Below are positions 9,685-46,692 of a stretch of 64,000 bases of DNA, piece after piece. Under the pieces are notes generated by a model. That model did no database searches. It was not told the origin of the DNA and saw only the letters and a program-made list of their open reading frames with translations. Source of the stretch: a virus; IMG/VR virus record IMGVR_UViG_3300046168_000085, positions 16,389 to 80,388 of that record, one strand, 5' to 3'. Each line of letters opens with the position of its first letter. Positions within the stretch are counted from its first letter, which is position 1. The translations under genes and the position numbers were made by a program.

Positions 9685-9712
9685 AAAAAAAAGACCTCCT
9701 TACGGAAGTCTT
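9685..9712 (-). terminator. Rho-independent terminator after the outer-membrane protein gene
   Basis: AAGACTTCC-GTAA-GGAGGTCTT followed by a T run on the minus strand. Confidence 0.75.
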
Positions 9713-9767: not shown

Positions 9768-10442
9768 TTAGAAGGAAAGTGATAATCCAACCGAAAATAC
9801 GGTTTCAGAATCACTTCCTGCGTTATCATTGTCAACAAGGGCAATGCCTGCGAATGTATCCGCACCTCCAAGAGAGGAAGTCACCGTAGCACCTACACTA
9901 TAATATGTGTAGTCAGCAGCGGCATCGACAGAACCCAATGAACCATCAAGAGTCAAACCAAACTGCTCTGAAAGAGAGATTGAGTGACCCACCGATAATT
10001 CTGCTACATCCGAATCATTATCTGAATCGATTGCATACAAAACACTTGGATTGAGGATAGTTTCAACGGACAAACCAAATCCGATTTCATCAGCACTTGT
10101 AGCACTTTGATAATCGTAATTAGTATATCCGACACTCAAATCAACCTTGCCAAGATCATAACCCAAAGAAACTCCACTACGAAGTTCGTTGGTTTGACCT
10201 GCTTCCAACGCATTAAAAGAATCAATGGATACTCCCAAAGATACTTTTTCAGAAACTGAAGTGGAAAGACCGAGAGAAGCACCAAGAGTGTCATCTGCTT
10301 GCTTTACACCACGGAATGTACGTGTGTCTGTATAAGAAACTCCAGCTTTACCTGTAAGTTCCCCTGCGTTAACGGTTTGATATGCGAAAAACCCTCCACC
10401 AAGAACGGCGACGGTTGCGATTATTTTAACTAATGTTTTCAT
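9768..10442 (-). CDS. Outer-membrane beta-barrel protein (TIGR02001/TorF-like putative porin)
   Basis: Signal peptide, alternating amphipathic beta-strands, early Y-x-D-x-R-x-F-R-G motif, C-terminal VFSVGLSLSF (BAM-type signal). Confidence 0.8.
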   Translation of the reverse strand: MKTLVKIIATVAVLGGGFFAYQTVNAGELTGKAGVSYTDTRTFRGVKQADDTLGASLGLSTSVSEKVSLGVSIDSFNALEAGQTNELRSGVSLGYDLGKVDLSVGYTNYDYQSATSADEIGFGLSVETILNPSVLYAIDSDNDSDVAELSVGHSISLSEQFGLTLDGSLGSVDAAADYTYYSVGATVTSSLGGADTFAGIALVDNDNAGSDSETVFSVGLSLSF

Positions 10443-10481
10443 AATGAGATATTATTATGACAGATTTAACAAATATGTCAA

Positions 10482-10688
10482 CTACTTTTCTTTTAAAAAT
10501 TTTATGACTTTGTTTCTAAAATCCACATCATTTGCAATCCTATATTTTATTTTTTGCTCTATTAGTTTATCTTCGTGTTGAATCTTTTTCATAATTTCAA
10601 TTTTTTTAGATTCTGTTTCTAATATAACAAATGTAAAAAATAGTAATTCCAAAAGTAATAAAAAGTACTGTTTGGATTGATAGAACAT
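10482..10688 (-). CDS. Small hypothetical membrane protein
   Basis: ORF track; N-terminal hydrophobic segment. Confidence 0.4.
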   Translation of the reverse strand: MFYQSKQYFLLLLELLFFTFVILETESKKIEIMKKIQHEDKLIEQKIKYRIANDVDFRNKVIKFLKEK

Positions 10689-10704
10689 ATTGATAATTAG
10701 TTAT

Positions 10705-11977
10705 TTATTGTTTTTTTTGAAAGTCGTATAAATTTTCTAATTTAAGAATATTGCTTAGTTCATTTAAAGCATTTCTACATTTTAATATAAACGAAGGCAC
10801 AAATATGTCATCGTAAATTAAATTACCAACATAATACTTTTTAATCCATATTTTTAAATTATTATACAAATCTTCTGTAAAAACAACTCCAGTGTGAATG
10901 TTATTAAATTCAGTTTCATTCATAGATACTCTTAATCTTAAACACGCCGGACCACCTCCGTTCCATAAACTTTGCTCTAAATTTACATAACGAACCTTTC
11001 GTATATCATTTGTTTCTTCCGATGATGCTTTGTAGGTATTTGCGTACCAATGGACTTCTACGACATCGTATGGGTGCTATCAGCATATGCCCATCTTTAT
11101 ATTCAACTAACTGACTATTAAACAAATATGTTTCAACTGCAACATCAAGTGGTATCTCTGATTCAGTTATCCGTAGAAGATTTAGTTTCCCATTAAAAGA
11201 GTCCTGAAGTTTTGTAATAGTTTCTGCTTCCTCTGCTAATGCATTTTCGTGGTAAACGTACAAATTTTTATTTCCGACTCCAATTACATCGTGGTGAAAT
11301 ACACCAGCATCTATGCTTTCCGCAGATTGTTGTGCGAATACTGCATTCTTGATTTGCATAATTTCCGCAACTTTTTTGGATGCTTCTAATGTTTGCCGTG
11401 CAGGATATTTTGACGGAGTTTCTTCTGACGAATTATTTGAACGACCATACACAAAGAAATGTAATCCTTCTTCTTCATACGAATTGCAGAATCGTGTGTG
11501 ATTGGCTGCACCTTCATCGTCCAACTCTCCATCACTATTCAAAGGAGAATGAATTAAAAATTTAGAGGTATCGTTGAAAATTTTATTTAATGTGATGTAA
11601 GTTTGAGGTGCTTCAATTCTACGATGATGTGTGAAATTCAAATTTGCAGTCAATAAATTTAACTTCCCATTCTCGGAATCTGTACTTGGTACGACAGTAG
11701 ACGAATTAGCAACCCACATACTGCTTGCAGATGAATTGATTGCCATATTATCATAATCTTCATAGTCGTTGATTAAAGGTCTTTCTTGTGGTGGTATAAT
11801 TGCTTGTTTATGCCCCAAATCAAACATCAACTTCATTTTGTCTAAACCTTGCAATGCAGCTTCCCGTGGATTGCTCGGCTTGCTTTTGTTCGTTGCCGAG
11901 TGTACATTTCCGTTAGCAAGACCAGCATAATTGTGAGTTGGTCCAACCAACCCATCAAAGTTTACTTCAAACGACAT
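10705..11977 (-). CDS. astB: N-succinylarginine dihydrolase (indel near 11010 joins the listed ORFs)
   Basis: EVNFDGLVGPTHNYAGL, SSASSMWVAN, DEGAANH, AGVFH; hand-read gap gives SLWNGGGPACLRLRV leading in frame into 10705..10923. Confidence 0.93.
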
Positions 11978-11983
11978 GGTATT

Positions 11984-12012
11984 ATTATAGATTACTTAAT
12001 CTTACCAGTCAA
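11984..12012 (-). promoter_or_regulatory. Near-consensus sigma70 promoter for astB (leaderless geometry)
   Basis: TTGACT-N17-TATAAT, then 6 nt, then ATG at 11977. Confidence 0.8.
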
Positions 12013-12300
12013 CCATTCAAACATCATTCTCCAATCTGCCATCTTAGCATATATTGGATTGCTTGACAAAAACGCAGGCATATTACCTTCAAAAAGAAGA
12101 TGACCCACAACCGCAAGTGGATAAACCACAAACGGAGTTAACAACAACCACCATAAACTAAGATTGAAAACGAACACGGATACAACAAATGCAATCGTTG
12201 CGACGTTTCCAAGCAAATGAAAAAACTTATTGATTGGTTTTGTGTGCTTACTCAGATAAAACTGATAGTATTCTTCAAAACTTTCAAACTTTTTTCCCAT
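11992..12300 (-). CDS. DUF962 / Mpo1-like membrane protein
   Basis: FESFEEYYQFYLSKHTKPINKFFHLLG...GHLLFEGNMPA...D-W-R-M family pattern. Confidence 0.85.
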   Translation of the reverse strand: MGKKFESFEEYYQFYLSKHTKPINKFFHLLGNVATIAFVVSVFVFNLSLWWLLLTPFVVYPLAVVGHLLFEGNMPAFLSSNPIYAKMADWRMMFEWLTGKIK

Positions 12301-12336
12301 ATCAATAAATATGGTATATATGAGTTTTTATAATAA

Positions 12337-12579
12337 TTACTTCTTCGCAACTTCTACATCAACCGAGTGCCAAGATTTTTCACACCCAACACTTTTACAA
12401 GCCTTTTTAATTGCTTCCGCAGTTCCTCTTGCTTTTACAGTTTCGGTGTGTCCTTTTTTGATGTCAACACCATCCACTTTTGCACTTTTGGTGAATTTTA
12501 CTTCCCAATTGCTGAATGCTTCATTTAAAAAGTTTTGAATTTCTTCACGGATGATTGATTGTAGTTCTGTTTTCTTCAT
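12337..12579 (-). CDS. Hypothetical phage protein with IIREE...LNE N-terminus
   Basis: ORF track; ATACTTATA motif upstream. Confidence 0.6.
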   Translation of the reverse strand: MKKTELQSIIREEIQNFLNEAFSNWEVKFTKSAKVDGVDIKKGHTETVKARGTAEAIKKACKSVGCEKSWHSVDVEVAKK

Positions 12580-12602
12580 AACAATATATAAGTATTATCC
12601 AC

Positions 12603-13601
12603 TTACAGAAAATATATACGAACTTTGTCGTTAATGTTTAGTTGTAATTTTTTTATGCTTTCTGCATCTACATGGATTTCTTGATTATCCCAATATTCTG
12701 CTTTTCCACGACAACAACGAAATGGTTCGTATGTTGCAATTAAAGTATCTTTTGGGTCTTCCACGAAATTCCCTGTTAATTTACCCACCTTGCTTCTTTT
12801 AATCGCACGAATGTTTTCAGTTTCACACGAATAAGTTGGTCCTGCTTCAAAAATATCAATCTCTCCGTTGAACTTGAAGTTCTGTTTCTGTAACATTCCC
12901 TTTGCAGGTTCCGTATTTTTGTGGACTTTACCAAGAACATCACGAACGTGTTTCGGAAGAAGATTAACGTAAATAGGATGACTCGGCATAAGGTCTTCTA
13001 TAAACTGCTTGTTTTTCATACTAAGATAATCTGCATTGGTATAATCTATCTTTAGAAAATGCTTCATACAATATTCGTAAAATGGTGAATGACCTCTTGT
13101 TGTTACAACACCACGCATTTCTGCGATTACTTCATTTTCAAAACGATCAAGATATTCTGCAATAAAAAGAAATCGTGAATAACTCAACAACTTTCCGTTT
13201 CCTTTTCTTGCATTTGGAAGCAGATAAAGAGTTCCAATTTCAGTAGGACCGGAATGCTTTTTATCTAAACGCAATACTTCGTTTGAAGTTTTGATTTTAA
13301 GTTCCTTATTTTCGTGGACTTCAGTATCTGTTACATATGTGTAGAAAGGTTCAAATCCACCAACTTTGCTGATGATACCGCAGATGCCTACTAACTCGTT
13401 GTTGTTTTCCATAACAAACAAATAACTTTCACCTTCAGGAGAATCCACCGATTTCTCAAATGAATATAATGTATGCTCAAGTCGTTTTTGAAGCAGAGAT
13501 TTATCGTTCTGCAAAGTTGTTATACCAGTTCCTGCTTTTTTTGCAAGTTTTTGCAGTCCACTTAAATCATTCTTATTTATCTGCCGAACGATCATAATCA
13601 A
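12603..13601 (-). CDS. astA: Arginine N-succinyltransferase
   Basis: GITTL, PEGESYLFVME, GPTEIGTLYL, GKLLSYSRFLFIA, IAEMRGV, HPIYVNLLP, IDIFEAGP. Confidence 0.95.
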   Translation of the reverse strand: MIMIVRQINKNDLSGLQKLAKKAGTGITTLQNDKSLLQKRLEHTLYSFEKSVDSPEGESYLFVMENNNELVGICGIISKVGGFEPFYTYVTDTEVHENKELKIKTSNEVLRLDKKHSGPTEIGTLYLLPNARKGNGKLLSYSRFLFIAEYLDRFENEVIAEMRGVVTTRGHSPFYEYCMKHFLKIDYTNADYLSMKNKQFIEDLMPSHPIYVNLLPKHVRDVLGKVHKNTEPAKGMLQKQNFKFNGEIDIFEAGPTYSCETENIRAIKRSKVGKLTGNFVEDPKDTLIATYEPFRCCRGKAEYWDNQEIHVDAESIKKLQLNINDKVRIYFL

Positions 13602-14955
13602 ACTGAATTAAGGTATCAAGAGTAATTTTAACAACTTCATCAATATCTTTTTTACTCATTACAGGTGTCGGAAAAAGAAAACGAACCTTCGTTGGATTTT
13701 TTCCTGCAATGAACGAAATCACTCCGTTTTTAAATAATTCGTGGACAAACTTCATTGTGACATCAGGAGACCCATCAAACACTTGAAATGCAAACATTGC
13801 ACCGATACCTCCAATGTTTGAAACAAACTCAGAGTTTTTTAATCCACTTTCAAACAAATTAAAGTATTTGTGATTCTTGCCGATTTTATACAACTCAGGA
13901 CCTGTTTTGCTTTTCTTGTCGTAAAACTTACCTTTAAGAATCTCTGTCAATACTACATCGGCTGCGAACAACGATGAAGTTGCTCCTGTGAAAGTTTGCG
14001 ACACCAACCCTGGTCTTGGTTTGACATCTTCTTTGAAAATCGTTGCACATACTTGTGTGCTTTTTCCTACACAAACCAAATCAACATATTCATCTAATTC
14101 AAACATTTGAAATGCGAATGGTTTATATGTTCTTGCAAAACTTTGTACTTCATCTACAAAGAAAAGTATATCGTGCTTTTTAAGACATTTTGCAATATCT
14201 TGAAGAATCTTTTTATCTCCAACATTGAATCCACCTTCTCCTTGAATAAGTTCTGCAACCATACACGAATGTTTACCAGGATGTCTTGCAATATGCTTTT
14301 CAAGATGCTTTACTGCTGATTCTGCATTAAACGGAATATAATCAACTTTAAGTGTATCAGGTAATCCTTCACGATAATATGGTTTATCTGTGATTTGTGA
14401 AACACCTGTTGTTCTTCCGTGGAAACAATTTGCAAATGCAAGAATACGATCAGCAGGAAACTTTTTTTGAAATGCCATCTTGATTCCGTTTTCAACTGCC
14501 ATTGCTCCACTTGTTGTTAAAAATACATGATCAAGTTTTGCTCCATGTAAATTTGCAACTTGTTTGAACTTTTCCATTACAACCAACGATTCTTCGTTTT
14601 GCTGAAGATTGCCTTGCATAACACAATCACTAAACGCAGAATTTAATGATGCTTCTACAATCTTCTCGTTTCCGTGTCCAAAATAATTTACACCAATTCC
14701 ACCTATCATGTCGTATTTAACTGATCCATCGGTAAGTTCTACTAATGCACCATATCCTTTTCCTGTTCCGACATAAGGAAATACCAATCCACCACCACGA
14801 ACATTTTTAAATCGTTCTAGTAGTTCTTCGGTGATTTCTTTAGGTGCAGTTGGTGGTGTGTGTTTTAGTTTTTTTACGGACTTAATATATTCTTTTAATA
14901 AAATTTGTTTTGCATCATTTGTTGTTTTGTCTGTAAAAAAATCGTTGTACCACAT
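13573..14955 (-). CDS. astC: Class III PLP aminotransferase, succinylornithine transaminase (AstC) role inferred from context
   Basis: SGAMAVE, FHGRT, ELIQGEGG, DEVQS, PLP lysine in VGKS; lies inside the ast cluster. Confidence 0.75.
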   Translation of the reverse strand: MWYNDFFTDKTTNDAKQILLKEYIKSVKKLKHTPPTAPKEITEELLERFKNVRGGGLVFPYVGTGKGYGALVELTDGSVKYDMIGGIGVNYFGHGNEKIVEASLNSAFSDCVMQGNLQQNEESLVVMEKFKQVANLHGAKLDHVFLTTSGAMAVENGIKMAFQKKFPADRILAFANCFHGRTTGVSQITDKPYYREGLPDTLKVDYIPFNAESAVKHLEKHIARHPGKHSCMVAELIQGEGGFNVGDKKILQDIAKCLKKHDILFFVDEVQSFARTYKPFAFQMFELDEYVDLVCVGKSTQVCATIFKEDVKPRPGLVSQTFTGATSSLFAADVVLTEILKGKFYDKKSKTGPELYKIGKNHKYFNLFESGLKNSEFVSNIGGIGAMFAFQVFDGSPDVTMKFVHELFKNGVISFIAGKNPTKVRFLFPTPVMSKKDIDEVVKITLDTLIQFDYDRSADK

Positions 14956-14959
14956 AATA

Positions 14960-16150
14960 TTACTCCTTTGTTATATTATATAAATATAACGCAGATAACT
15001 TTGTTCGTTCTTTTAACGAATCAATGAAAATCATTTCATCACGACTATGCATTCCATTTCCAACAGGACCAAGTGAATCCATATTAGGCAATCCATATCC
15101 GTTTAGTTTGTTTCCATCACTTGCTCCTCCACTCATAATCAACTTTAGTTTGTTCATTCCAAGTTGCTTCGCACATTTTTGAAGATGCTCGGTTATTTTC
15201 TTTGCTTCTTTGGTGTATGGTTTTGGAGGACTTGTAAATTTTCCGTGAAGTTCTGTACCTGGATACTTCTTACGCATATCACGATAAAAATTTTGCAGAC
15301 GATGTTCAAACTCAGTTCTTTGTTTTTTGGTGACAACTCTGCAATTGAATCTGCATATTGCTAAATCAGGAACAACATTTGACGGACCACCTCCTTCTAC
15401 TTTACCTAAATTGATCGTCATTCCTTCATTGATTGTCATCATAGTCTTTGACCAATTTATGAAATCAGCAACTCCGTAAAACGCATTTAATCCATCGTGA
15501 AAGCAACGGCCTGCGTGTGCAGATACTCCTCGGAATACCATTGTATAACTTCCTACTCCTTTACGTGATTTAACGATGCTTCCGTCAGGTAACGCAGGTT
15601 CATACAACAATCCAATATCATTGTTTCTTGCGGAAGTTTCTAAATAAGAAGAAGATGCAATGCTTCCAACTTCCTCATCTGGTAAAATTAATACTTCCCA
15701 ACCAACTTTATTTTTAATATCACTATTTTCGTATGCAAGCAAAGCATACAACATAGTCATTAAACCACCTTTCATATCAAGTACTCCAGGACCCATCATT
15801 TTGTTTCCGTTTATTGTAACTTTCTGAAAATCATGGTCTTTCGGATATACGGTGTCATAATGTCCACACAATAAAATTCGTGTTTCAGCAGTTTGTCGTT
15901 TACGCAAACGAAGAACTTTTCCGTGATTTAATTGTTTTATTTCTCCGTTGGAATTTATTGAATCAATTGGAGATAACTCGTATTGATTAATTTCATCTGG
16001 TTCAAGTTCTGAAAACATTTCTTGAAGTTGATCAATTGCGACATCAAGATTTTTTAAATTATAGGTATGAGTATTAAGATTTGAAAACGACTCAAGACGA
16101 TCAAGCATTTCATCAAACCTATCGTCTATTAAACTTAGGTAGTTGTTCAT
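14960..16150 (-). CDS. M20 metallohydrolase, candidate non-orthologous succinylglutamate desuccinylase
   Basis: GHYDTV, GPGVLDMKGG, DEEVGS, GGASDGN, GMHS motifs; sits between astD and astC and no AstE-family gene is seen. Confidence 0.8.
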   Translation of the reverse strand: MNNYLSLIDDRFDEMLDRLESFSNLNTHTYNLKNLDVAIDQLQEMFSELEPDEINQYELSPIDSINSNGEIKQLNHGKVLRLRKRQTAETRILLCGHYDTVYPKDHDFQKVTINGNKMMGPGVLDMKGGLMTMLYALLAYENSDIKNKVGWEVLILPDEEVGSIASSSYLETSARNNDIGLLYEPALPDGSIVKSRKGVGSYTMVFRGVSAHAGRCFHDGLNAFYGVADFINWSKTMMTINEGMTINLGKVEGGGPSNVVPDLAICRFNCRVVTKKQRTEFEHRLQNFYRDMRKKYPGTELHGKFTSPPKPYTKEAKKITEHLQKCAKQLGMNKLKLIMSGGASDGNKLNGYGLPNMDSLGPVGNGMHSRDEMIFIDSLKERTKLSALYLYNITKE

Positions 16151-16167
16151 ACCTATAAGTATCAAAC

Positions 16168-17539
16168 TTACAGAGTAATACCAGGTAGCAGTTTGCTTGG
16201 AAGTTCAGGAACTTCAGTAAGATGTAAGGCAGTTGGGTGGCCGCAATGTTCAATAGTTGTATAACCACTTGGACGATTGCAACCACTCCAACCCATCCCA
16301 CCGAAAGGAACAACACTTGCACAACCCGTGGTAGGACGATTCCAATTTACTATTCCCGTTTTGAGTTCTGCTTCTGCTTTCCAAAATAAATTCTTGTTCT
16401 TGGTGATGACACCTGATACTAATCCGTACTTGGTGTCGTTTGCAATTTCTATTGCGTGTTCAAAAGTATTACTGCGAATAACTTGAAGCAACGGACCAAA
16501 ATATTCTTCGTCTGGTAAATTCTTTATATCAGTAACATCAATGATACCAGGTTCAACTAATCTACTTGATGTTCCATTAATTTGTTTAAATTCTTTTAAT
16601 ATAGTTCCACCTAAACTTACCAAATGTTTTTGAGCATCTAAAATTCCGTTGACTGCATTCACCGAAATCATTGGTCCCATAAAGGTTCTGGAGTCATCAG
16701 TATATTCTCCGATAACAAGTTTATCAGCTGCATCAATTAAATTACGAATTATACGATCACCTTCACACGCAGTTAATCCTTTGTTAACAATCAATCTTCG
16801 TGTACAAGTGCATCTCTGACCAGTAGAAATAAATGCAGATTGAAGAAGAATGTTTGTAGCAGTATTAAGACCACCTGCTTCTTCAACAATTGTTGCATTG
16901 TTTCCACCCATTTCCAATGCGACAATCTTTTCTGGGATAATCACTTAATGCTTTGTAAATGCTATGACCAACTTTTGTACTTCCTGTAAAAAACACTCCG
17001 TCTAACAACGAATTATCAATTACATCTGCTCCACTTCCTTCGCATAAAATTACCACGTCTTTTGGTATTCCTGCTTGATGTAAAAGTTCCACCATTTTTC
17101 GTCCTGTTTCAGGAGTCAATGAACTTGGTTTAAATACAACAGAATTCCCTGCGAGAAGCAAAGGAACGATGTGTCCGTTTGGAAGATGACCAGGAAAGTT
17201 GAATGGACCAATAACTGCAAAAACACCGAATGGTTTGAATCGTGCTTGTATTCCCATATCAGCATGAACTGATCGTAACGCATTAAGACGATCATTGTAA
17301 GATTCAAATGTTACATCAATTTTTCCGACCATTGCTCCAACTTCAGATTTGGAATCCCATAAAGGTTTTCCGTGTTCTTTTGATATGGTCTCGGCGATTA
17401 TATCAGAATTTGCTTCTAATAACTTTTTGTATTTTCTAAGAATACTTTTACGATGCTGAATTGTAGTTTTTCTCCAACTATCAAATCCTAGTTTGGCACT
17501 CTTGAATTTATCATTTATTTCGTTTTTGCTAAGTGCCAT
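16168..17539 (-). CDS. astD: Succinylglutamate semialdehyde dehydrogenase (indel near 16935)
   Basis: GPFNFPGHLPNGHIVP, FKPS, FTGS, ALEMGGNN, GQRCTC, EEYFGP, NWNRPTTG, PFGG. Confidence 0.92.
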
Positions 17540-18334
17540 TACTTATTATCCGTACTTTCAAAAATTTTATCGGCAGAACCTGCAATAAATCCGTCAAAAT
17601 TATTATGACGCAATGCAAATTCATAATAGCATCCAGGAATTTCAAATAATTGTCCCTCCTCTGAATCAAACTCAACGGATACATTTTCTGCCATAATACT
17701 TGATTGCTCTAGTCCTTGTTTAACTGAACCTTTTATTTCACCACCTGAATCATTTATTCTATATCCGTTTTCTTTCAAATATGAATTTACCTGTCCAAGA
17801 TTTTCAAACGAAGAACAATCTGTGACACTTATTGTAAAATGATTAACGATAAAACCAAATGTGGCCACCCAAAGCTGCATACTCACTTTCTTCTTTTAAA
17901 AAGTCATAAGTTTCTTTTGTAATCATGCCCCACGGAGTTCCACAATTACAGAAATCAAAAGCATCTAGTTGCTCGTTGGATATTTGGTTAACTAATCTGT
18001 CAATCGTATCTTGTAATTCTTGTGAAAATTCTTCTAATCTTAGTTCACTAATAAATACCCGTGTCAAATCATCATCAGAATGTAAATAATATGTTGCATC
18101 GAGTTTCTTTTTTTCAAATGCTAAGTCTTCAACTTCTGAATATCCACTCTTTACAAAAGATTTGGCAAGAACACTACGATTAATACGTGGATGATTGAAT
18201 GTTCTTAATGCAATATGATCATTCTTTACCGAAGTTCCTTCGTGTTGCTCAATGAGTTTTTTTACTTTAACAACTTGCGGATTTACACGTGAATACATAC
18301 TCCACATATCATCAAACAATTCTCGTATATTCAT
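17539..18334 (-). CDS. DUF1338 (HglS-like, VOC-fold) protein (indel near 17872)
   Basis: NDHIALRTF, VFISEL, ESEYAAW (restored), NHFTISV, GGEIKGS...LEQSS, YYEFALR, FIAGSADKIFEST. Confidence 0.85.
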
Positions 18335-18576
18335 AATAAATCTAACCTTTCATTTACCTTCTCAAGCATTTTTTCATAATTTATTCTGTTTGAACGGGTT
18401 GTCGTATCATCACCCCACTCGATACAATCTTCAAGTTGGTCTTTTAACCATCGTAACTCTTTTTTATTAAATGGAGTGGTTATACCGTTTACTTTAAATG
18501 TTTTCTGATGGATATCTTCTGGATTCTCCACACATTTTTTTAAAGTATTCCTCAAAGTCCATTTATTCTTCTTCAA
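18331..18576 (-). CDS. Hypothetical protein
   Basis: ORF track; 5' end uncertain. Confidence 0.4.
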
Positions 18577-21767: not shown

Positions 21768-23120
21768 TTAGCACTCAGTTACATTTACTGCCAATCCACC
21801 TTTACTTGTTTCTTTGTATTTGCTTTTCATATCAGCACCAGTTGCTTTCATTGTTTTTATTACGTCATCCAATGAAATTTTTGTATCGTTTTCATTAAGC
21901 ATTGCCATACGACTTGCATTAATTGCCTTTCCAACTCCAATTGCATTTCGTTCTATACATGGTATTTGTACAAGTCCTGCAACAGGATCACAAGTTAATC
22001 CTAAATTATGCTCCATAGCAATTTCGGCCGCATTTTCTACTTGCTTTAAAGTTCCTCCTACAATTTCAGTTAATGCACCGGCTGCCATACTACAAGCAAC
22101 TCCCACTTCTCCTTGGCATCCTACTTCTGCACCTGATAAACTTGCATTCATTTTGTATAACATAGCAATTACTCCAGCCGTTAATAAAAACTTGATTTCC
22201 CAATCTTCTGATTTTTCGTGGACATACTCTTTAATATACATCATTGTTGCGGGAATAATACCAGATGCTCCGTTGGTAGGAGCAGTAACAACACGATTCA
22301 TAGCTGCGTTTTCTTCGTTAACCGCAATCGCACAAATGCTTGAATAATCAAGAAATGCTTGATTATCAAGTTCATTGTTTTTAAGAAAGTTTTCGTACAT
22401 AATCGCAGCTCTTCGTTCTACATTTATTGTACCAGGAAGCATACCTTGAGTTGTTAATCCTCTGTCTACGCATTCTTGCATTATTCTCCATATTCTGCGT
22501 AATTCTGTTTTGGTTGTTTTTTCTTTTCTGAAACACTTTTCATTTTCCAACACCACATCAGATATTTTCAAATTACGATTTTCTGCGATAGTAAATAATT
22601 CTTCCGCACAAGAAAATTCATTGGTGAGTTTTCTTTTGGAAGTTTTAACTTTATTCTTTTTTGCGTTACTTTCTGTTACCACAAAACCACCACCAATGCT
22701 ATAATACATTCTCGTAGCAACTTCTTTACTTTTTGTATAAGCATAAAACTTTATTCCATTGGGATGATACGGAAGTTTTTTCTTTTTGTTGAAAATTATA
22801 TCATTCTGCGTGAATTTAATTTTACGAATGCCACCGAGTTTTATTTCTCCGTCAAGAGAATCAACTTCATTTAATTGTTGTTGTTTTACTTGATCCGGTG
22901 CATAATTCAATAAACCGAGTTGAATTGCAATCGGAGTTCCGTGACCTTCACCTGTTAATGCAAGTGAACCAAACAACTCAATTTTGATTGAATCGACTTC
23001 ACCAAATACTTTTTTGTGTTTCAAAAAAGAAACAAACTTTCTTGATGCTTGGATAGGACCTGTGGTGTGTGAACTTGAAGGACCTATTCCAATTTTGAAA
23101 AAGTCAAGAACACTATACAT
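21768..23120 (-). CDS. sdaA: L-serine ammonia-lyase, Fe-S dependent, single chain
   Basis: FKIGIGPSSSHTTGP, GSLALTGEGHGT, YSIGGGFV, VVTAPTNGA, GAEVGCQGEVG, EHNLGLTCDPVAGLVQIPCIERN, YKETSKGGLAV. Confidence 0.97.
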   Translation of the reverse strand: MYSVLDFFKIGIGPSSSHTTGPIQASRKFVSFLKHKKVFGEVDSIKIELFGSLALTGEGHGTPIAIQLGLLNYAPDQVKQQQLNEVDSLDGEIKLGGIRKIKFTQNDIIFNKKKKLPYHPNGIKFYAYTKSKEVATRMYYSIGGGFVVTESNAKKNKVKTSKRKLTNEFSCAEELFTIAENRNLKISDVVLENEKCFRKEKTTKTELRRIWRIMQECVDRGLTTQGMLPGTINVERRAAIMYENFLKNNELDNQAFLDYSSICAIAVNEENAAMNRVVTAPTNGASGIIPATMMYIKEYVHEKSEDWEIKFLLTAGVIAMLYKMNASLSGAEVGCQGEVGVACSMAAGALTEIVGGTLKQVENAAEIAMEHNLGLTCDPVAGLVQIPCIERNAIGVGKAINASRMAMLNENDTKISLDDVIKTMKATGADMKSKYKETSKGGLAVNVTEC

Positions 23121-24970
23121 TATTCAAGAAACTTGAATGTACCACCTAGAATTTTCTTTGCGAAAGAATAATTCTTTTTGTCGTTATTGTTGCTCATTCC
23201 ACTAAAGTTGTTTTTGATTTTGATTTTTGCTTCACTAAAAACCACATCCATCAACTCAAGATATTCAGCTGCTTTTTCAGGATCATCTTTGATCATGCTA
23301 TCAATACGTAATGCACACGCAGATATTACAAACAACTCAGTTCCAATTTCAGTCAAACGACCAAGAAGCATTTGTTGTTTGTCTAATGAAGGACCGTATC
23401 GTGCCATTGAGTGAAATAGTTTTCTGCTTAATTTCTTGCTTGTTCTTGAAACATAAAGAAGATACTTTTTGACTGCTCCATTTACTCCCGTGGGTCCTGA
23501 ATTGAAAGTTGGTAACCATTGTTTTGGATACCAAGTTGCATAGTGTATTCCTGCTCCGATAGCTGCCTTTAAACGAACCATCAATGGAAGACGTGAATCA
23601 AGAACTGCTCCGGCTGCTTTAAGATGTGGATCAAGTGCTTCACGTGCCAAAAGCAAACGCATAATTTCACTTGAACCTTCAAAGATCATATTGATACGAC
23701 AATCACGAAGAAATCTTTCCACAGGAATTGGATCAGAACCACGATTGCGAAGTGAGTCAGCAGTTTCGTAACCACGACCACCACGTATTTGCATCGTTTC
23801 GTCTGCTACTTTCCATGCTTCTTCTGTTCCCCACATTTTACACATTGCAGATTCCACACGAATATCTGCTTTTTTACCATCCACTAAACTTGATGTAAAA
23901 AGAACGATACTTTCAGTTGCGAAATTCTTGGCCGCAATCTTAGCAATTTTATCACCAATTGCTTGGTGTTTACCAATAGCACATCCCCACTGTTCACGTG
24001 ATGAACCCCACTCACGACAAATCTTTAAGCAACTACGCATAAGTCCCACACAAGCAGCCGGTAATGTAAGACGACCTGTATTCAATGTGCTAAGTGCAAC
24101 CTTGAGTCCTTTGCCTTCTCCTGCTACCAAATTCTCCACAGGTATCTTTACATCGGTAAATCTTACAACACCATTATACAATGCTTTAAGACCCATAAAA
24201 CGACATCGAGTAACTACTTCTACACCAGGTGTATCCATATCAAGAATAAATGCCGAAATGCTTTTACGCATTTTGCCTTTAATTTCTGTATCAGGTGTTC
24301 TTGCCATTACAATAATAACACTTGCTTTTACTCCATTTGTACACCAAAGTTTTTCTCCGTTTAAAACATAATGAGTTTTATCTTCTGATAACTCTGCGTA
24401 AACCGTCATTTGTGCAGGATCACTTCCTACAGTTTCTTCAGTCAACGCAAACGCACTAATTTCTCCTTTACCAAAACGAGGAAGATGCTTTTTCTTTTGT
24501 TCGTCTGTTCCGTAAAGTAACAATGGTTGAGGAACTCCGATACTTTGATGTGCTGATACTAACGCAGTTATATTTCCGCACACTTCACCCAACTTCATAG
24601 CCGCACGTGAATAATTTGTTTGTGATAAACCACGACCACCATATTCCGTTGGAATTTTAATTGCGAATGCACCAATCTTTGCAAGTTCTTTAAATACTTC
24701 ATCAGGAATTTCACCTTCACGATCAATTGCGTCTGCATCTACATACTTGTCTAACACATCACCCAATTCATTCAAGAAAATATCTCCTTTTGCTTTGTCT
24801 TCTGCTTTTTGTTTCGGAAATGGATAAATCAAATCATAATTTGCTTCACCTGTAAACAAACCACCACTAAAACTTTTTGTTCCTTTTTTTCCTTTATCAC
24901 GTGCAGCCTCGGCTGCTTCCAAGGCATCTGCTTTACCCTTGGACATTTTTGAAGTATCTATTTCACTCAT
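23120..24970 (-). CDS. fadE: Acyl-CoA dehydrogenase (long-chain, VLCAD-like)
   Basis: SAHQSIGVPQP, AFALTE..GSD, LNGEKLWCTNG, MQIRGGRGYE, RINMIFEGSSEI. Confidence 0.93.
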   Translation of the reverse strand: MSEIDTSKMSKGKADALEAAEAARDKGKKGTKSFSGGLFTGEANYDLIYPFPKQKAEDKAKGDIFLNELGDVLDKYVDADAIDREGEIPDEVFKELAKIGAFAIKIPTEYGGRGLSQTNYSRAAMKLGEVCGNITALVSAHQSIGVPQPLLLYGTDEQKKKHLPRFGKGEISAFALTEETVGSDPAQMTVYAELSEDKTHYVLNGEKLWCTNGVKASVIIVMARTPDTEIKGKMRKSISAFILDMDTPGVEVVTRCRFMGLKALYNGVVRFTDVKIPVENLVAGEGKGLKVALSTLNTGRLTLPAACVGLMRSCLKICREWGSSREQWGCAIGKHQAIGDKIAKIAAKNFATESIVLFTSSLVDGKKADIRVESAMCKMWGTEEAWKVADETMQIRGGRGYETADSLRNRGSDPIPVERFLRDCRINMIFEGSSEIMRLLLAREALDPHLKAAGAVLDSRLPLMVRLKAAIGAGIHYATWYPKQWLPTFNSGPTGVNGAVKKYLLYVSRTSKKLSRKLFHSMARYGPSLDKQQMLLGRLTEIGTELFVISACALRIDSMIKDDPEKAAEYLELMDVVFSEAKIKIKNNFSGMSNNNDKKNYSFAKKILGGTFKFLE

Positions 24971-24972
24971 TG

Positions 24973-27063
24973 TTATTTATCCTCGTAGAATTTTTTGTTT
25001 GTTTTTGCGTATTCAAGAAGCATATCACACGGAGTAAAGTATGCATCTTTTTTTGCTAGTTCTTGTAATTTTTGAACAACTTTTAATGCTCCTAAATTAT
25101 CAAGATACGAAATTGGTCCTCCACGAAATGGAGCCCATCCAGTTCCCATTATCATTCCAAAGTCTACATCCTTTGGACTATTTACAACTTCTTCTTGTAA
25201 ACAACGAACTGCTTCGTTAACCATAATTAAAATTAAACGATCAACAATTTCTTCATCTGCAATTTCTTGATTTATATAAGCAGATTGGATTGCTGATGTA
25301 GGTAACTTAGAACTTACACCTGTTGATTTTCCATTTGTATATTTGTAAAATCCACGACCACTTTTTTTACCTACATCTTTGTTGTCGATCATTAACTTCA
25401 AAAACTCTGATTTAGGAAAATTAGTTTCAAGACGATTCAGCAGATCATCTGCGACGTGTTGACATACATCCCCTCCTACTTCATCAATTAAACGAAACGG
25501 TCCCATTGGCATTCCAAACTTACGCAACAACTTATCGACTCGTTCAATGTCTGCACCACACGAAACCATATAAACTGCTTCAATCAAATATGGCATAAGA
25601 ATTCTATTAACAAGAAATCCAGGTGAATCTTTTACCACCACAGGAAGTTTACCTGTCTTTTTAACAAACTGAGTTGCTTTTAAAACGGTTTCCTCGGAGG
25701 TACATTCTCCACGAACCACTTCCACTAATTTCATTTTGTGAACAGGATTAAAATAATGTATTCCGACCACTCGTTCTTTATGTTGCATTTTTTCTGCGAC
25801 ATCTACAATACTAAGTGCTGATGTGTTTGTTGCAAGAATTGTATCATCACGAACAAGTGTTTCAAGTTCCGCAAATAAATCCTGCTTGATTTCAAGTTGC
25901 TCAATCGCAGCTTCTACTACTAAATCAACACTTTTCATTGGCATAGATTCGGTGATAGGTGTAACATTATCAAACTTACTTGATGCTTCTGCTTTAGTCA
26001 TCACTCGTTTGCTTACAGCTGCTGAGTACAATTTACTTATGCTTGCAATTCCTTTTGCTACAAACTCTGGTTTAATATCCTTGAGCAATACTTTGATTCC
26101 TCTTGAACTAATCCATTGTGCAATACCTGCACCCATCACTCCTGCTCCTATAACCGCAGTATTTTTTACTTTAAAGTCTTTGTCACTTTTTGTTTTCTTG
26201 CTTCGTTCTTGTAAAAAGAATATGTTCACCAAATTGTTTGCTACATCTGAAGTAAGAAGTTCTGCAAATGCTTTTTGTTCAAGTTTAAGTGATTCTTCAC
26301 GACTTACACCAAGACCTTTCACCATAACATCAATTGCTTTCAACGGAGCAGGATAAACGCCACCTGTTGTTTTAATAACATTTTTGGTTGCTTTGCTTTT
26401 TGCGATATACTTCAACGGAAAACGATTTAATAAATGAGACTTGTATTTCTTTTTTCCATTTAGTAACATTGCTTTTGCAGATGCTTCCAAATTTTCTTTG
26501 TATACCGCACGATCAATCATTCCAAGTTTAAGTGCCAACTTTGGAACAACCACTTTACCTGCTAGAATAATTCCCATTGCTCCAGGTAACCCAATCATTC
26601 TTGGTAAACGAGTTGATCCACCCCAAGCAGGAAGAATTCCAAGCATCGTTTCTGGTAAACCAATTTTAGTTGCTGAATCTAATGTTGCAACACGATGATC
26701 ACACGCAAGTGCAAGTTCATATCCACCACCCAAACACGCACCGTGAATTGCAGCCACAGTTACACACGACAAATCCTCAATACGATCAAATGTATGCTGA
26801 CCAAGTTTTACTAAATAAGAAATTCTTTCAGGTGTAGGATCATCTGCGAATGATTTCAAATCCGCACCTGCGATGAATATACTTGGTTTAGCACTTTGAA
26901 ATACCACTCCTTTGATCGTCTTACTGCTATCTTCTATAAAATCAAGATGATCATTTAATTCTGCAAACATATTTTCATCAAACACGTTAGCAATTGAATT
27001 TTCTTGATCAAATGTTATTGTAACAACATCATTTAATTGTTCTAGTTTAATTGACTTGCTCAT
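24973..27063 (-). CDS. fadB: Multifunctional enoyl-CoA hydratase / 3-hydroxyacyl-CoA dehydrogenase (FadB/FadJ)
   Basis: FIAGAD, GACLGGGYELALAC, GLPETMLGILP, GAGVMGAGIA, NTSAL, GIHYFNPV, DSPGFLVNR, FRGGP. Confidence 0.95.
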   Translation of the reverse strand: MSKSIKLEQLNDVVTITFDQENSIANVFDENMFAELNDHLDFIEDSSKTIKGVVFQSAKPSIFIAGADLKSFADDPTPERISYLVKLGQHTFDRIEDLSCVTVAAIHGACLGGGYELALACDHRVATLDSATKIGLPETMLGILPAWGGSTRLPRMIGLPGAMGIILAGKVVVPKLALKLGMIDRAVYKENLEASAKAMLLNGKKKYKSHLLNRFPLKYIAKSKATKNVIKTTGGVYPAPLKAIDVMVKGLGVSREESLKLEQKAFAELLTSDVANNLVNIFFLQERSKKTKSDKDFKVKNTAVIGAGVMGAGIAQWISSRGIKVLLKDIKPEFVAKGIASISKLYSAAVSKRVMTKAEASSKFDNVTPITESMPMKSVDLVVEAAIEQLEIKQDLFAELETLVRDDTILATNTSALSIVDVAEKMQHKERVVGIHYFNPVHKMKLVEVVRGECTSEETVLKATQFVKKTGKLPVVVKDSPGFLVNRILMPYLIEAVYMVSCGADIERVDKLLRKFGMPMGPFRLIDEVGGDVCQHVADDLLNRLETNFPKSEFLKLMIDNKDVGKKSGRGFYKYTNGKSTGVSSKLPTSAIQSAYINQEIADEEIVDRLILIMVNEAVRCLQEEVVNSPKDVDFGMIMGTGWAPFRGGPISYLDNLGALKVVQKLQELAKKDAYFTPCDMLLEYAKTNKKFYEDK

Positions 27064-27064
27064 T

Positions 27065-28312
27065 TTATTCTCTTTCCAAAATTATTGCACCACCTTGGCC
27101 ACCACCAATACAAAGTGAAATTAATGCTCGTTTACCACCACGACGTTCAAGTTCCTTCAAAGTTGTAAGTGCAATACGTGAACCACTTGAACCAACTGGA
27201 TGACCAAGAGCAATTGCTCCTCCATTGACATTCAATTTGGCAAAATCAACTTCACCCAAGTTTGTGGTTTTTTTCAGTTGCTTGCAAACCGCAAGAACTT
27301 GGGCAGCGAATGCTTCGTTGATTTCAATTAAATCAAAGTCATCAAGTTTATATCCAGTTTCTTCGCATACTTTCTGAATCGCATAAACTGGTCCTAATCC
27401 CATTCTTTCAGGGATCACATCCTGCATATGCGTATGCGGAAATTCTACCCAATGGATTCCAATTGTTTTGCTTAACTGCATTTCATCTGCAATCAACAAT
27501 GACACTGCTCCGTCTGTAATTTGCGATGCGTTGCCCGCAGTTACAGTTCCTTGTTTGCGATCAAATACAGGTTTAAGTTTTTCCAACGCACCCATACTTT
27601 GCTCACCACGAATTCCATTGTCTGCATCAACGAATGTTCCGTCTGCGAAATAAAATGGGGAAATCTCAGATGACATTTTTTCTATTGCCACAAATGCTTT
27701 CAAATGAGATTCTAATGCAAACTTATCTTGATGATATCGTGTTACTCCACTTTCTCTTGCGATCAATTCAGCAGTTTCACCCATATTCATTCCAACCGTG
27801 ATATCACTCAATCCTAATCGTAAACTGATTATAGGTGCGAAGTCTTTTGGACGGAAACTCAATATCGTATGAAGACGATCACGAAATGTTCTACACTTAC
27901 TTAACTTGGTAAATTTATCAACTGCACTTGAACGATATAAAAATGGTGCTTGTGTCATATTCTCCGTTCCCCCACTTAAATAAACACTTCCACGATCAGC
28001 ATTAATTTTATCAGATGCTTGTGTAATTGATTCAAAACCACTTGCACAATTACGATGAACCGTATAAGCAGGAACACTCTTGGGTACTCCCGATTTAAGT
28101 GAAATTACACGTGTGATGTTTGCGGTGTCTGCTGGTTGACATACACAACCCATTACACTTTCGTCAATTACATCGGGATTCAAATCCATCTTTGCAAACA
28201 ATGCTTTTGTTGCAGAAACTCCGAGGTCTGCAGCTGATGTTTTAGCAAAGGTCGTACCCATTTTACAAAAAGGAGTCCGAGTACCATCTACAAGATATAC
28301 ATTTTTTTTCAT
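27065..28312 (-). CDS. fadA: 3-ketoacyl-CoA thiolase (FadA/FadI), with a compensating indel pair at about 27410-27485
   Basis: RTPF, NCASG, TAGNASQITDGA, NEAFAAQ, GGAIALGHPVG, LCIGGGQG; alternate frame restores PLGRISAYAYAGCDPERMGLGP. Confidence 0.95.
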   Translation of the reverse strand: MKKNVYLVDGTRTPFCKMGTTFAKTSAADLGVSATKALFAKMDLNPDVIDESVMGCVCQPADTANITRVISLKSGVPKSVPAYTVHRNCASGFESITQASDKINADRGSVYLSGGTENMTQAPFLYRSSAVDKFTKLSKCRTFRDRLHTILSFRPKDFAPIISLRLGLSDITVGMNMGETAELIARESGVTRYHQDKFALESHLKAFVAIEKMSSEISPFYFADGTFVDADNGIRGEQSMGALEKLKPVFDRKQGTVTAGNASQITDGAVSLLIADEMQLSKTIGIHWVEFPHTHMQDVIPERMGLGPVYAIQKVCEETGYKLDDFDLIEINEAFAAQVLAVCKQLKKTTNLGEVDFAKLNVNGGAIALGHPVGSSGSRIALTTLKELERRGGKRALISLCIGGGQGGAIILERE

Positions 28313-28606: not shown

Positions 28607-29708
28607 CTATTTCAAATTGTTTGCTGTGTGTTTGCTTCTGCCATTTCTAAATCCAAGTTTATTTAACTCTTCAAGCAACACATCTGAAATTTCAATTCCG
28701 TTTTTATGAACATCAATAGATGTATTATATTCAGTTTCTCCTGGAACTAAAACTTCTTCACCTCGTTTACTTTTGCTTGATTTTATTTCACGCATCACAT
28801 CACCAACATTTTTTTTGAAATCTTTAAGTCCGCAAAGTTTTCTGGATCAATGCAAATAAAGAAATGACCAATATCATAATTTGGATTTTTGTATTTCCTT
28901 CATACAAGTCCACTTAGTTTGCTCATATAAGCACCACTTTGAAATGCCGAACACATAAGTTCTATTGCAATACTTAAACCAGAACCTTTGTGTCCTCCAT
29001 CTGGTGTCAACGCCGCAATTCCTTGTTTTAACCAACGCAATGATCTTTCAAATGTTAGATTTTGATTTTCAGAAACTATCGCACAATTAGGAACATAGTT
29101 GTCTGGTGTTTTTCTTGCCATTACTTCCAAATCACCTCTTTGATAAACTGATGTTGCACAATCAATACTAAACGGATATTTTTCATCAGATGGAAATGCT
29201 ATTGCGTATGGATTCGTACCCATCTTTGGTTCTACTCACCATGAGGAGCAACCGCAGGTCGTGCGTTTGTAAAACTCATTCCCACTAAATTATGCTGAGT
29301 TGCATAACGACTATAATAACTTGCAATTCCGTAATGTGAGGAATTTCTAACCGCAACACAACTAATTCCATGTTCTTGAGTTTTTGCAATTGCTTGGTTC
29401 ATTGCATACTTGCCAACGATTTGTCCAAGTGCATTGTGACCATCAATAGTTACACAGGCTTTGTTGTCACGAACAATCTCGGGAGTTGCATTTACATCGA
29501 TTACACCATCTTGAATTCGTTTTATATAATAACTAAGTCTGCTTAATCCGTGTGATTTAAATCCAAGTTCGTCAGCACTTAATAATACATCAGCACATAC
29601 ACTTGAATATTTGCTTGGTACTTTGTTTTTTTCAAATACCCACTTCGCAAACGCAATTGCATCTTTAAGTTTTATTTTCACTTTGCTCTTTCGATTTTCT
29701 AATTTCAC
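28607..29708 (-). CDS. Ldh2-family (malate/L-lactate/sulfolactate/DpkA-like) NAD(P)-dependent oxidoreductase, split by indels
   Basis: ADELGFKSHGLSRL, VRNSSHYG, FTNA.P.VAP, MGTNPYAIA, GGHKGSGL, VLVPGE across 3 listed ORFs. Confidence 0.85.
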
Positions 29709-33468: not shown

Positions 33469-35954
33469 CTATTGACAACTCTCACACACTTCACCACGCA
33501 TTTTTGCTTCTAAACTGCACAATGAGGGTTCTTCAGATTCTTGTGGATTTTCTGTATCTGTATTATCTGCATTGTGTTCTTCTACATTTGATCCAGTTGA
33601 CTTTTCAATTGCACTTGCCGCCAAATTCCGCAAATAGTAAGTTGTTTTCAATCCACTTTTCCATGCGTGTGTATAAATGTCGTTCAAAAACTTCATACTA
33701 CTTTTGTCGTTGTAAAGATTCAAACTTTGACCTTGATCAATCCACTTTTGACGAGCAGCCTGCACAATCAATAAGTTTGAATTGATCTTGTTGAAATGCA
33801 GTAACATATTTTTCTTTTATCCATTGAGGAATTGAACCATTTAGTTTGCTAAGATCACCATCAACGGTTTTAACCAAGTTGGCAAGTTCTTTTGTCCAAA
33901 TTCCTTCTGCTTTCATATCATTAACAAAGTATTCGTTCATCATTGTAAACTCACCACTTAAAGTAGAATACACAAAAATAACTCCAAAGTTTGGTTCAAT
34001 GCTTTGTGAACATCCTGCGATGTAACTGATTGTTGCAGTTGGAGCAATTGCCATTGTATTGGAATTACGCATTCCTTGTTTGGCAACTTTCTTTTTGAGT
34101 TTGTCCCAATTTTTTCTAAGATTCACTTCGTCAGAATTTCCACGAAGTTTCATAACCTCTTTCCAAGTATCAATCGGAAATGTTCCTTTGCTCCAAAGAC
34201 TTCCTGTGTATGATTCGTAAGTTTCTTTTTCTACTGCCATATCAGACGAAGATTCAATTGCGAAATAAGAAATGTTTTCATAAATTTCATCACTAATACG
34301 AATTGCATCATCACTTCCGTAGTTGACACTAAACTCATAAAACATATCGTGCCAACCCATTGTTCCTAATCCAACAGGACGATGAGTCATATTACTTTTA
34401 CGTGCTTCTTCTGTTGGATAATAATTTAGATCAATAACATTGTCTAACATACGCATTGCCATTTTGGTGCTTTTTTCTAATTTATCATAATCAATAAATT
34501 TTTCACCATTTTTATCTACACCTACGTGTCGTTTCAAATTGATGCTTGCTAAATTGCAAGTTGCAGTTTCTCCGTATTCTTTAACGGTGCGTGTGCCATC
34601 ATCTGCGTGAATAGTGGGTTTGGTATGAAGAAGAATCTCTGTACACAAATTACTGCTATGCACCGTTCCTACGTGCTGATTACTATACCGAATATTACTT
34701 GGGTCTTTGAAGGTTACCCACGGATGACCAGTTTCAAAAATACTTTTCAACATTTTCTTCCAAAGGTCTTTTGCTTTGAGTTCACGAAAAACATTCAATT
34801 CTCCGTCTTGACCTTTTTTAACATATTCCCAATATTTTGTTTCAAATGCTTCACCGAAGATTTCGTGTAACTCAGGAACTTCATTTGGACTAAACAAATA
34901 CCAAGGACCATCTGCTTCTACTTGTTTCATAAACAAATCAGGAATCCAATTTGCAGTATTCATATCGTGACAACGCATTCTGTCATCACCTACGGTTTTT
35001 CGTAATGCCAAAAAGTCTTCAATGTCAGAATGCCATGTTTCAAGATATGCACATCCTGCACCTTTTCTTTTTCCACCTTGATTTACTGCAACGAGCATAT
35101 CATTGTAAAGTTTCCAAAAGTATACAGGTCCTTGATTGATTCCGTTTGTTCCTTTGATATAACTACCTCTTGCACGAAAGTTTGAGATGTCAAAACCAAG
35201 ACCACCTGCGAATTTGCTTTTTCTTGCTTCTTGCCAAATGCCATCAAAAATTCCATCAATAGAATCATCAAAGTATTTAAATAGCAACTGCTGAGTTGAC
35301 TATGAGTTGTTCCACTATTAAACAAAGTTGGTGTGGAACTAACTACATCAAAGCAACTAAGAGTTTCGTAAAACTTTAATGCGTATGCTTGTCGGTCTTC
35401 TGGTTTTTCATTTAATGCCAATCCCATTGCAATACGCATCCACATTGCTTGTGGAGTTTCCATACGACGTCCTTCTATATGCAAAAGATAACGATCATAA
35501 ATGGTTTGTATTCCAAGATACTTCCAATCTTTTTCTCTATCAATATTAAGTTTCGCACTAAGTTCACGCAAATCAAAACTTTCAAGTAACTCTTCGTTGA
35601 GAATTTCTTCACGGACTAATCTACGCATATTAGTAATAAAACTTTTACGATACTGAAGTTCAAACGCATCACTATCTACTCCTTCACCGAACACTTCTTT
35701 GTAAATTGTATTAAGAAGCATTCTCGCAGCCATATAAGCATAATTCGGTTCAAACTCAATTTTAGACCTAGCACTCATAATAAGTGATTTGTCTATTTCA
35801 GTTGTTGTAACTTTATCGTACAACTTTATTTTGGCATCAATTAATACTTCACTTGCACTTACGTTATCTAAATTTTTGATGCACGTTCGGCACATTCGTT
35901 GATTTTATCAACATTAAATTCTTCGAGTCTTCCGTTGCGTTTTTTTACTTTCAC
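33469..35954 (-). CDS. nrdA: Ribonucleotide reductase large subunit with N-terminal ATP cone, split by three indels
   Basis: [65 protein letters not shown]-terminal CESCQ. Confidence 0.95.
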
Positions 35955-43405: not shown

Positions 43406-43409
43406 AATA

Positions 43410-44565: not shown

Positions 44566-44585
44566 AATGATGTATCCCTTGACTA

Positions 44586-46685: not shown

Positions 46686-46692
46686 AACCATT

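Follow-up and report, generated by a model that had tools for sequence, protein, structure and literature searches.

A variant arginine succinyltransferase gene block in a probable fragment of a huge marine phage

Can a phage carry an entire amino-acid breakdown route among its own genes? The question is raised by a block of genes in the 64,000-nt stretch of DNA analysed here (bases 16389-80388 of the single virus record IMGVR_UViG_3300046168_000085, 80,388 bp; this stretch is called the window, and positions are counted within it), in which an earlier note, made from the letters alone, had seen a complete arginine succinyltransferase (AST) pathway. Phage metabolic genes are usually single steps. 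The answer that we consider likely is that the window belongs to a fragment of a huge marine phage, that its block encodes a variant of the AST pathway feeding nitrogen and energy, and that the frameshifts in three of its genes stem from errors in the record. CheckV estimates the record to be 51% complete. GC content is 0.34 and uniform across the window, and the minus strand carries nearly every open reading frame (ORF). The block reads as follows, from its head onward:

17539..18334, minus strand: DUF1338/HGLS gene (2-oxoadipate dioxygenase/decarboxylase family), the head of the block, in two pieces (18334-17843 and 17886-17539)
16168..17539, minus strand: astD, succinylglutamate-semialdehyde dehydrogenase, in two pieces (17539-16883 and 16944-16168)
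14960..16165, minus strand: M20 metallo-hydrolase of the NF005602 (PRK07338) family, 420.7 bits to NF005602
13573..14955, minus strand: class III (pyridoxal phosphate) aminotransferase, 460 amino acids, 160 bits to PF00202
12603..13601, minus strand: astA, arginine/ornithine N-succinyltransferase, 369.6 bits to PF04958
12337..12579, minus strand: ORF of 80 amino acids, family-less and lineage-specific
11992..12300, minus strand: Mpo1-like (DUF962) small membrane protein, 85.8 bits to PF06127
10705..11977, minus strand: astB, N-succinylarginine dihydrolase, in two pieces (11977-11006 and 10923-10705) that match PF04996

The gaps between these genes range from -29 to +36 nt, so the block is packed like an operon; the 3' end of HGLS overlaps the start of astD by 1 nt. 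ORF calls and the Pfam and NCBIfam profiles uphold the gene list and order of the earlier note, except that it had overlooked the HGLS gene at the head (18334-17539).

The block is not confined to this record. A scan of metagenome contigs finds the same block order in more than 20 marine ones, at 60-99% amino-acid identity, and the order is kept for ~10 kb on each side of the block. The median pairwise ratio of nonsynonymous to synonymous divergence (dN/dS) is 0.08-0.2 in all eight block genes, at dS of 0.6-1.4, and each gene is stop-free in 10-21 copies. The block is under purifying selection in the phage lineage. The AST genes stay intact in the relatives despite variable inserts between them. 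These inserts, none of which occurs in the window, comprise a NUDIX hydrolase, two kinds of sulfotransferase, and family-less ORFs of 466 and 372 amino acids (L003:11262-11717, L020:7374-7853, L006:7888-8436, L016:9377-9994, L025:11000-12400 and L020:6275-7393). Most of the block is covered by contigs from metatranscriptome libraries, some of them 100% identical to it, which is only a hint of expression and is tempered by the fact that such contigs may stem from carried-over DNA; conversely, the stretches of the seawater run X7 that lack RNA cover (10400-11221 and 17798-18345) do not signify silence.

In the trees of AstA, the aminotransferase, AstD, AstB, the M20 protein and HGLS, the phage versions make up a single clade with a long stem (0.55-0.87 changes per site), which indicates that the block is old in the phage lineage. 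FastTree places the phage AstA, aminotransferase and AstD beside a low-GC marine group of cellular genomes (L046, L061, L128 and L156), with SH-like supports of 93, 82 and 97, respectively. We do not name this group as the donor, given the long stems, the skewed composition, the moderate support, and the failure to find AstB and the NF005602 M20 protein in L128 and L156, the two genomes searched, both metagenome-assembled. All four members of the group share the layout aminotransferase-astA-(HGLS, on the other strand)-aldehyde dehydrogenase, a cluster that may be an ornithine-only variant.

The assignment of AstA, AstB and AstD is direct. AstA passes both PF04958 (cut-off 29.4) and the arginine/ornithine subfamily model TIGR03243 (317.4 bits, cut-off 284.35), and scores 319.4 bits with the equivalog model TIGR03244, under its cut-off of 391. 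Identity is 71-98% within a clade of metagenome proteins and then falls to at most 48% in cells. The true start of astA is likely the ATG two codons inside the called ORF. The two astB pieces match PF04996 positions 3-344 and 375-443. Intact AstB proteins of relatives have 419-430 amino acids, score 518-525 bits with NF009789 (cut-off 452), and align end to end with the E. coli AstB structure 1YNF. The earlier note had called the catalytic motifs of astB intact. All three are indeed present, but DEGAANH and VFH lie in the first piece, whereas GGGPAC, the catalytic-cysteine motif, can be read only in the second piece's frame, ahead of the start called for that piece, and thus no single frame of the record holds all three. 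The astD pieces match positions 33-236 and 234-483 of TIGR03240/NF006992, with the motifs FTGSTKVG, EMGGNN and GQRCTC present; intact AstD proteins of relatives (453-462 amino acids) score 535-558 bits with NF006992 (cut-off 514) and stay under the TIGR03240 equivalog cut-off of 579. At 16680-16692, a +1/-1 pair 12 nt apart turns the AstD segment ...DDPEPFMGP... into ...DDSRTFMGP...; the former occurs in contigs of the seawater runs X2 and X7, and contigs of the runs X1 and X3 appear to match the window.

Three further genes accompany these enzymes. DUF1338/HGLS has no role in the textbook AST pathway; PF07063 matches the second piece of the window's gene, and an intact relative of 269 amino acids scores 96.9 bits. 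A short DUF1338/HGLS gene also recurs near AST genes in several bacterial phyla (loci L085, L094, L097, L104, L121, L128, L143, L150, L046 and L061). The 80-residue ORF, which the earlier note had described as phage-type, is found in 21 related contigs with a median dN/dS of 0.2, has no Pfam match, and gives no hit in the cellular loci searched. The Mpo1-like gene is the most conserved of the block: where relatives have an AstA of only 73-75% identity, the identity of its product is still 94-99%. Its dN/dS is 0.10 and its dS is not reduced, so that the constraint on this gene is unusually strong.

In the record itself, HGLS, astD and astB are each broken. Alignment with relatives places the breaks at an extra T at 17871 (TT to TTT) in HGLS, an extra C at 16934 (CC to CCC) in astD, and a +1 shift at 11009/11010 in astB. 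The claim of a complete pathway would therefore hold for intact relatives, in which all five enzyme types are present, and does not hold for the letters of this record. We consider it most likely that the three frameshifts are sequencing or assembly faults rather than pathway decay, because the relatives have open frames, because contigs from other runs lack the insertions, and because there are breaks elsewhere in the window. A single stop-free frame is seen in 10 copies of HGLS, 12 of astD and 13 of astB among the relatives. When contigs of four seawater runs (X1, X2, X3 and X7) are aligned onto the block, the extra C at 16934 is absent from those of X1, X3 and X7, and the extra T at 17871 from those of X1, X2 and X3; the X3 contig that spans 17799-18181 lacks this T and shows no other difference from the window. 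A change of strain occurs at 11009/11010 in contigs of three runs. The X1 contig matches the window exactly up to 11010 and then diverges, and the X2 and X3 contigs are identical to the window from 11009 on, with a different sequence, common to both, on the other side. Joining the X2/X3 sequence to the 5' part of the window's astB gives an open frame (...GRNKAIKKVRYVNL). The astB break thus sits exactly on a join of two strain variants, which none of the listed contigs bridges in the window's form. Finally, nrdA (33737-35895) is split into an ORF for the N-terminal domain and one for the barrel domain, SpoVR (41980-43405) is split at about profile position 155, and an Ldh_2-family gene (28900-29708) covers only positions 2-146 of 333. 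Since these genes are broken as well, the breaks run through the whole contig and are not specific to the block.

The best-surviving alternative, which we nevertheless regard as unlikely, is that the AST block is truly decaying in this strain, the three +1 insertions being real mutations that have produced recent pseudogenes while the relatives remain intact. It gains from the position of the breaks: in the 21 kb compared with relatives, all three independent breaks fall inside the block and none in its neighbours, among which the serine deaminase gene sdaA, the methylase gene and eight others are unbroken. It also gains from the X2 contig, which agrees with the window at 16934, so that a real minor frameshift allele of astD is possible. 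Both observations weigh against our reading of the frameshifts. Decay, however, would leave unexplained the breaks in nrdA, SpoVR and the Ldh_2-family gene. Two of the three insertions lengthen single-base runs, the T at 17871 is missing from a contig whose 382 bases otherwise match the window exactly, and the astB break coincides with the unbridged strain junction, with the X2/X3 version in frame. The indels that the earlier note had feared are accordingly real in the record but most likely not true lesions, and the three broken genes should not be taken for pseudogenes.

Two of the five steps are assigned to enzymes outside the textbook families. The class III aminotransferase that the earlier note had listed is present, but it reaches no NCBIfam cut-off, its best score being 149.6 bits with TIGR00707 against a cut-off of 410. 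Orthology to AstC is ruled out by this lack of any passed equivalog model, together with the alignment to E. coli AstC, which shows 30% identity over 56% of the AstC length. In 56 of the 80 cellular loci examined, the gene directly before astA encodes a homologue 41-50% identical to the window's enzyme. It is a different class III enzyme, belonging to the same type of cellular operon, and may act like AstC from outside the AstC family.

The M20 protein scores above the NF005602 cut-off of 357 bits, and it keeps the residues that correspond in alignment to the metal ligands and catalytic Glu of carboxypeptidase G2 (H..D, D.KGG, DEE, EP, and an H near the C-terminus). The NCBI name for NF005602 is only 'hydrolase'. 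AstE itself (PF04952, TIGR03242) gives no match at E values up to 1 in the 80-kb record, which is about half of the genome, and tblastn with E. coli AstE has no hit there, nor in any of the related and cellular loci retrieved. On the strength of gene neighbourhood and co-occurrence, the NF005602-type M20 protein is a likely stand-in for AstE, that is, a predicted N-succinylglutamate desuccinylase.

The neighbourhood evidence comes from 80 loci in GTDB species genomes, anchored on the closest AstA proteins, with neighbours counted within 8 kb of astA. The loci belong to Planctomycetota, Fibrobacterota, Omnitrophota, Latescibacterota, Myxococcota and other phyla. Near astA we find the same long aminotransferase as in the block in 56 loci, astD in 52, the M20 gene in 37 and astB in 28; all four are present in 14 of the 80, typically in the order M20-aminotransferase-astA-astD-astB, and a DUF1338/HGLS gene is often close by. 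AstE is absent from the 10 AstA-bearing genomes searched, three of them complete. The co-occurrence evidence comes from an even sample of 121 Planctomycetota genomes. AstA is encoded in 13 and a strong NF005602-type M20 protein in 8, all of which are among the 13 (Fisher p = 1.4e-9, ignoring kinship), and AstE is found in none of the 121. Among 14 control genomes, only Caulobacter vibrioides has an NF005602 match over the cut-off, and it has AstA and AstB but no AstE. That an M20 enzyme would carry out the desuccinylase step is well supported by this comparative genomics, and the proposal of the earlier note that M20 replaces AstE is strengthened by it. A point on the other side is that 5 of the 13 AstA-bearing Planctomycetota have no strong M20 match, which means that other desuccinylases must exist too.

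The block can then be read as five successive reactions. AstA would succinylate arginine, AstB would take off the guanidino group as two NH3 and CO2, the class III aminotransferase would perform the AstC step, AstD would oxidise the resulting semialdehyde, and the M20 hydrolase would take off the succinyl group in place of AstE. The net chemistry of the AST pathway, arginine to two glutamate, two NH3, CO2 and succinate, is established. During infection, host arginine, succinyl-CoA and 2-oxoglutarate would be turned into two glutamate, two ammonia, CO2, succinate and NADH. The benefit would probably be nitrogen and energy for replicating a huge genome in nitrogen-poor seawater, as the four nitrogen atoms of each arginine would become available to a very large virus for making nucleotides and proteins.

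It is also conceivable, if slightly less probable than decay of the block, that these genes cooperate on another substrate or to another end: ornithine or another basic or guanidino compound might be processed, arginine might be depleted to the detriment of competitors or to shut down the host, or the M20 protein might act on a substrate other than N-succinylglutamate. AstA passes only the arginine/ornithine subfamily model and not the AstA equivalog, and its nearest cellular kin, like those of the aminotransferase and AstD, come from the L046/L061/L128/L156 group, whose clusters may act on ornithine and in which AstB and M20 were not found (L128 and L156 searched). The conserved HGLS, Mpo1-like and 80-residue genes, moreover, fall outside the textbook pathway. 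Arguing the other way, the arginine-specific AstB is present, in intact relatives over its subfamily cut-off and with its catalytic motifs kept, and the five enzyme types fit the five steps one to one and recur together as one cellular operon.

Does the block belong to the phage? One flank carries a tail sheath gene (cut by the contig end) and genes for a baseplate hub, a tape-measure-like protein, a DNA polymerase, a UvsX/RecA recombinase and an exonuclease; the other carries an HNH-type gene and genes for a Dda-like helicase, a Ro-like RNA-binding protein and three DNA methylases. Viral genes thus stand on both sides of the block, away from any host junction, in a record flagged 'provirus'. 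When searched against 50,697 phage records, the sheath and RecA proteins agree in their top two, an uncultured huge phage (484 kb) and Microcystis phage Mel-JY01 (190 kb). In 11 independent contigs, drawn from different samples, the genes from the acyl-CoA dehydrogenase through the HNH-type gene keep a single order, which excludes a one-off host chimera. Contigs that encode block proteins measure up to 374, 492 and 495 kb; the related contigs of 0.37-0.49 Mb include Ga0209198_1000001 and Ga0315331_10000002, besides contigs of 492,783 and 495,094 bp. The best cellular AstA among ~185,000 species genomes is 48% identical, though the sequence is common in seawater runs. An abundant cellular source is therefore unlikely, given a sequence common in seawater without a close sequenced cell. 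No integrase is seen in the 80 kb of the record. These results support the view of the earlier note that the block is part of the phage genome.

One of its arguments, the recurrence of promoter motifs in the block, is not supported, as a consensus scan counts 42 sites where chance alone would give 43.9. The best two, both sigma-70-like and with 11 matches out of 12, lie at 11984-12012 and 10454-10481; the distances from their ends to the start codons of astB and the porin-like gene are 7 and 12 nt, respectively, which would leave almost no leader. Megablast of the block against the phage records gives no match. Beyond astB, the co-directional array ends with three further features:

10482..10688, minus strand: ORF of 68 amino acids (an ORF call), in the tail of the array after astB
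9768..10442, minus strand: porin-like secreted protein, 224 amino acids, with a signal-peptide-like N-terminus and the C-terminus ...SLSF
9691..9712, minus strand: strong terminator-like hairpin, a 9-bp stem followed by a T run, at the end of the array

The porin-like protein resembles a small outer-membrane barrel, and all 39 homologues found belong to the phage lineage, none being cellular; such a protein suggests a Gram-negative host. Elsewhere in the window, genes for a thiolase, a FadB/FadJ-type hydratase-dehydrogenase, an acyl-CoA dehydrogenase and L-serine deaminase lie head to tail at 21768-28312, and the part from the acyl-CoA dehydrogenase to sdaA is conserved in related contigs. At 41980-46691, a trio of PrkA (YeaG), DUF444/YeaH-like and SpoVR genes stands between polymerase and recombinase genes. 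The serine deaminase, the beta-oxidation genes and the PrkA-YeaH-SpoVR module would match the same metabolic theme as the AST block.

The weakest alternative, that the block is host DNA misassembled onto a phage, or that the whole is a stretch of bacterial chromosome or an integrated prophage bordered by host genes, is very improbable: the 'provirus' flag on this record (which is classed as viral), its trimming from a 90,970-bp contig whose flanks are outside our view, the several cellular-type gene blocks in the window (beta-oxidation, sdaA, prkA-yeaH-spoVR) and IMG/VR scans with AstA, the AstA clade alignment and the porin-like protein, which found no relatives and say little, speak for it, but the 11 contigs keep their order across and beyond the block, phage genes flank it on both sides, the nearest cellular AstA is distant despite the abundance of the sequence in seawater, no integrase is present, and GC content and strand are uniform. 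Three more points, beside the flag and the trimming, weigh against our main reading of the window. No capsid, portal or terminase gene is seen in this record of ~51% completeness, the large related contigs (136-495 kb) were compared only within ~10 kb on each side of the block, and the activities of the M20 protein and the aminotransferase are predicted from gene neighbourhood and co-occurrence.

Compared with the canonical AST pathway, as encoded by astCADBE of E. coli and aruCFGDBE of P. aeruginosa, the block would share the five chemical steps, and it shares the clustering of the genes; AstA is 36%, AstB 38-44% and AstD 40% identical to the E. coli enzymes. It differs in having an NF005602 M20 protein in the place of AstE, an aminotransferase that is not AstC, another gene order, three extra conserved genes, and a viral carrier. 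The resemblance to the M20-aminotransferase-astA-astD-astB operon, a common one in cells, is closer, as the same five enzyme families are present, the M20-aminotransferase-astA sub-order is kept and DUF1338/HGLS is often near. Yet identity between phage and cellular proteins is only 33-50%, the phage sequences group in long-stemmed clades of their own, astD and HGLS have shifted to the head of the block, and the 80-residue ORF and the Mpo1-like gene stand between astA and astB.

Multi-gene metabolic modules are known from phages, such as NAD salvage in Vibrio phage KVP40 and carbon and nucleotide metabolism in cyanophages. Like these, the AST block consists of host-type metabolic genes under selection in a lytic-type phage genome, which presumably sustain metabolism during infection; unlike them, it would amount to an entire five-step amino-acid catabolic route. 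Among the 50,697 phage records, AstA and AstB occur in no true phage, the only hits being contigs labelled 'Acinetobacter phage MD-2021a'. Those contigs (CAKLQH020000001/3/25 and CAKLQF020000001/4/21, 50-379 kb) are annotated with astA, astB, astC and sdaA, and look like pieces of a bacterial chromosome filed as phage. The literature searched reports no AST genes in a virus and no M20 succinylglutamate desuccinylase, and holds no description of the cellular M20-aminotransferase-astA-astD-astB operon.

A bolder form of this reading, about which we are tentative and which we hold at slightly less than an even chance, is that cosmopolitan marine phages of ~0.5 Mb run their own arginine-to-glutamate pathway as a virus-encoded starvation metabolism, together with serine deaminase, beta-oxidation and PrkA/YeaH/SpoVR, and that the M20 protein and the aminotransferase are undescribed non-orthologous forms of AstE and AstC in many phyla that lack AstE. 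For the cellular side, Planctomycetota, Fibrobacterota, Caulobacter and other groups without AstE appear to rely on the M20 protein and the aminotransferase for a complete AST pathway, and the operon offers a testable function for two families named only 'hydrolase' and 'aminotransferase'. For the phages, a whole five-step route of amino-acid breakdown would be kept under selection in a lineage that is common in seawater, which points to the supply of nitrogen and energy by host arginine as limiting for the replication of very large phages.

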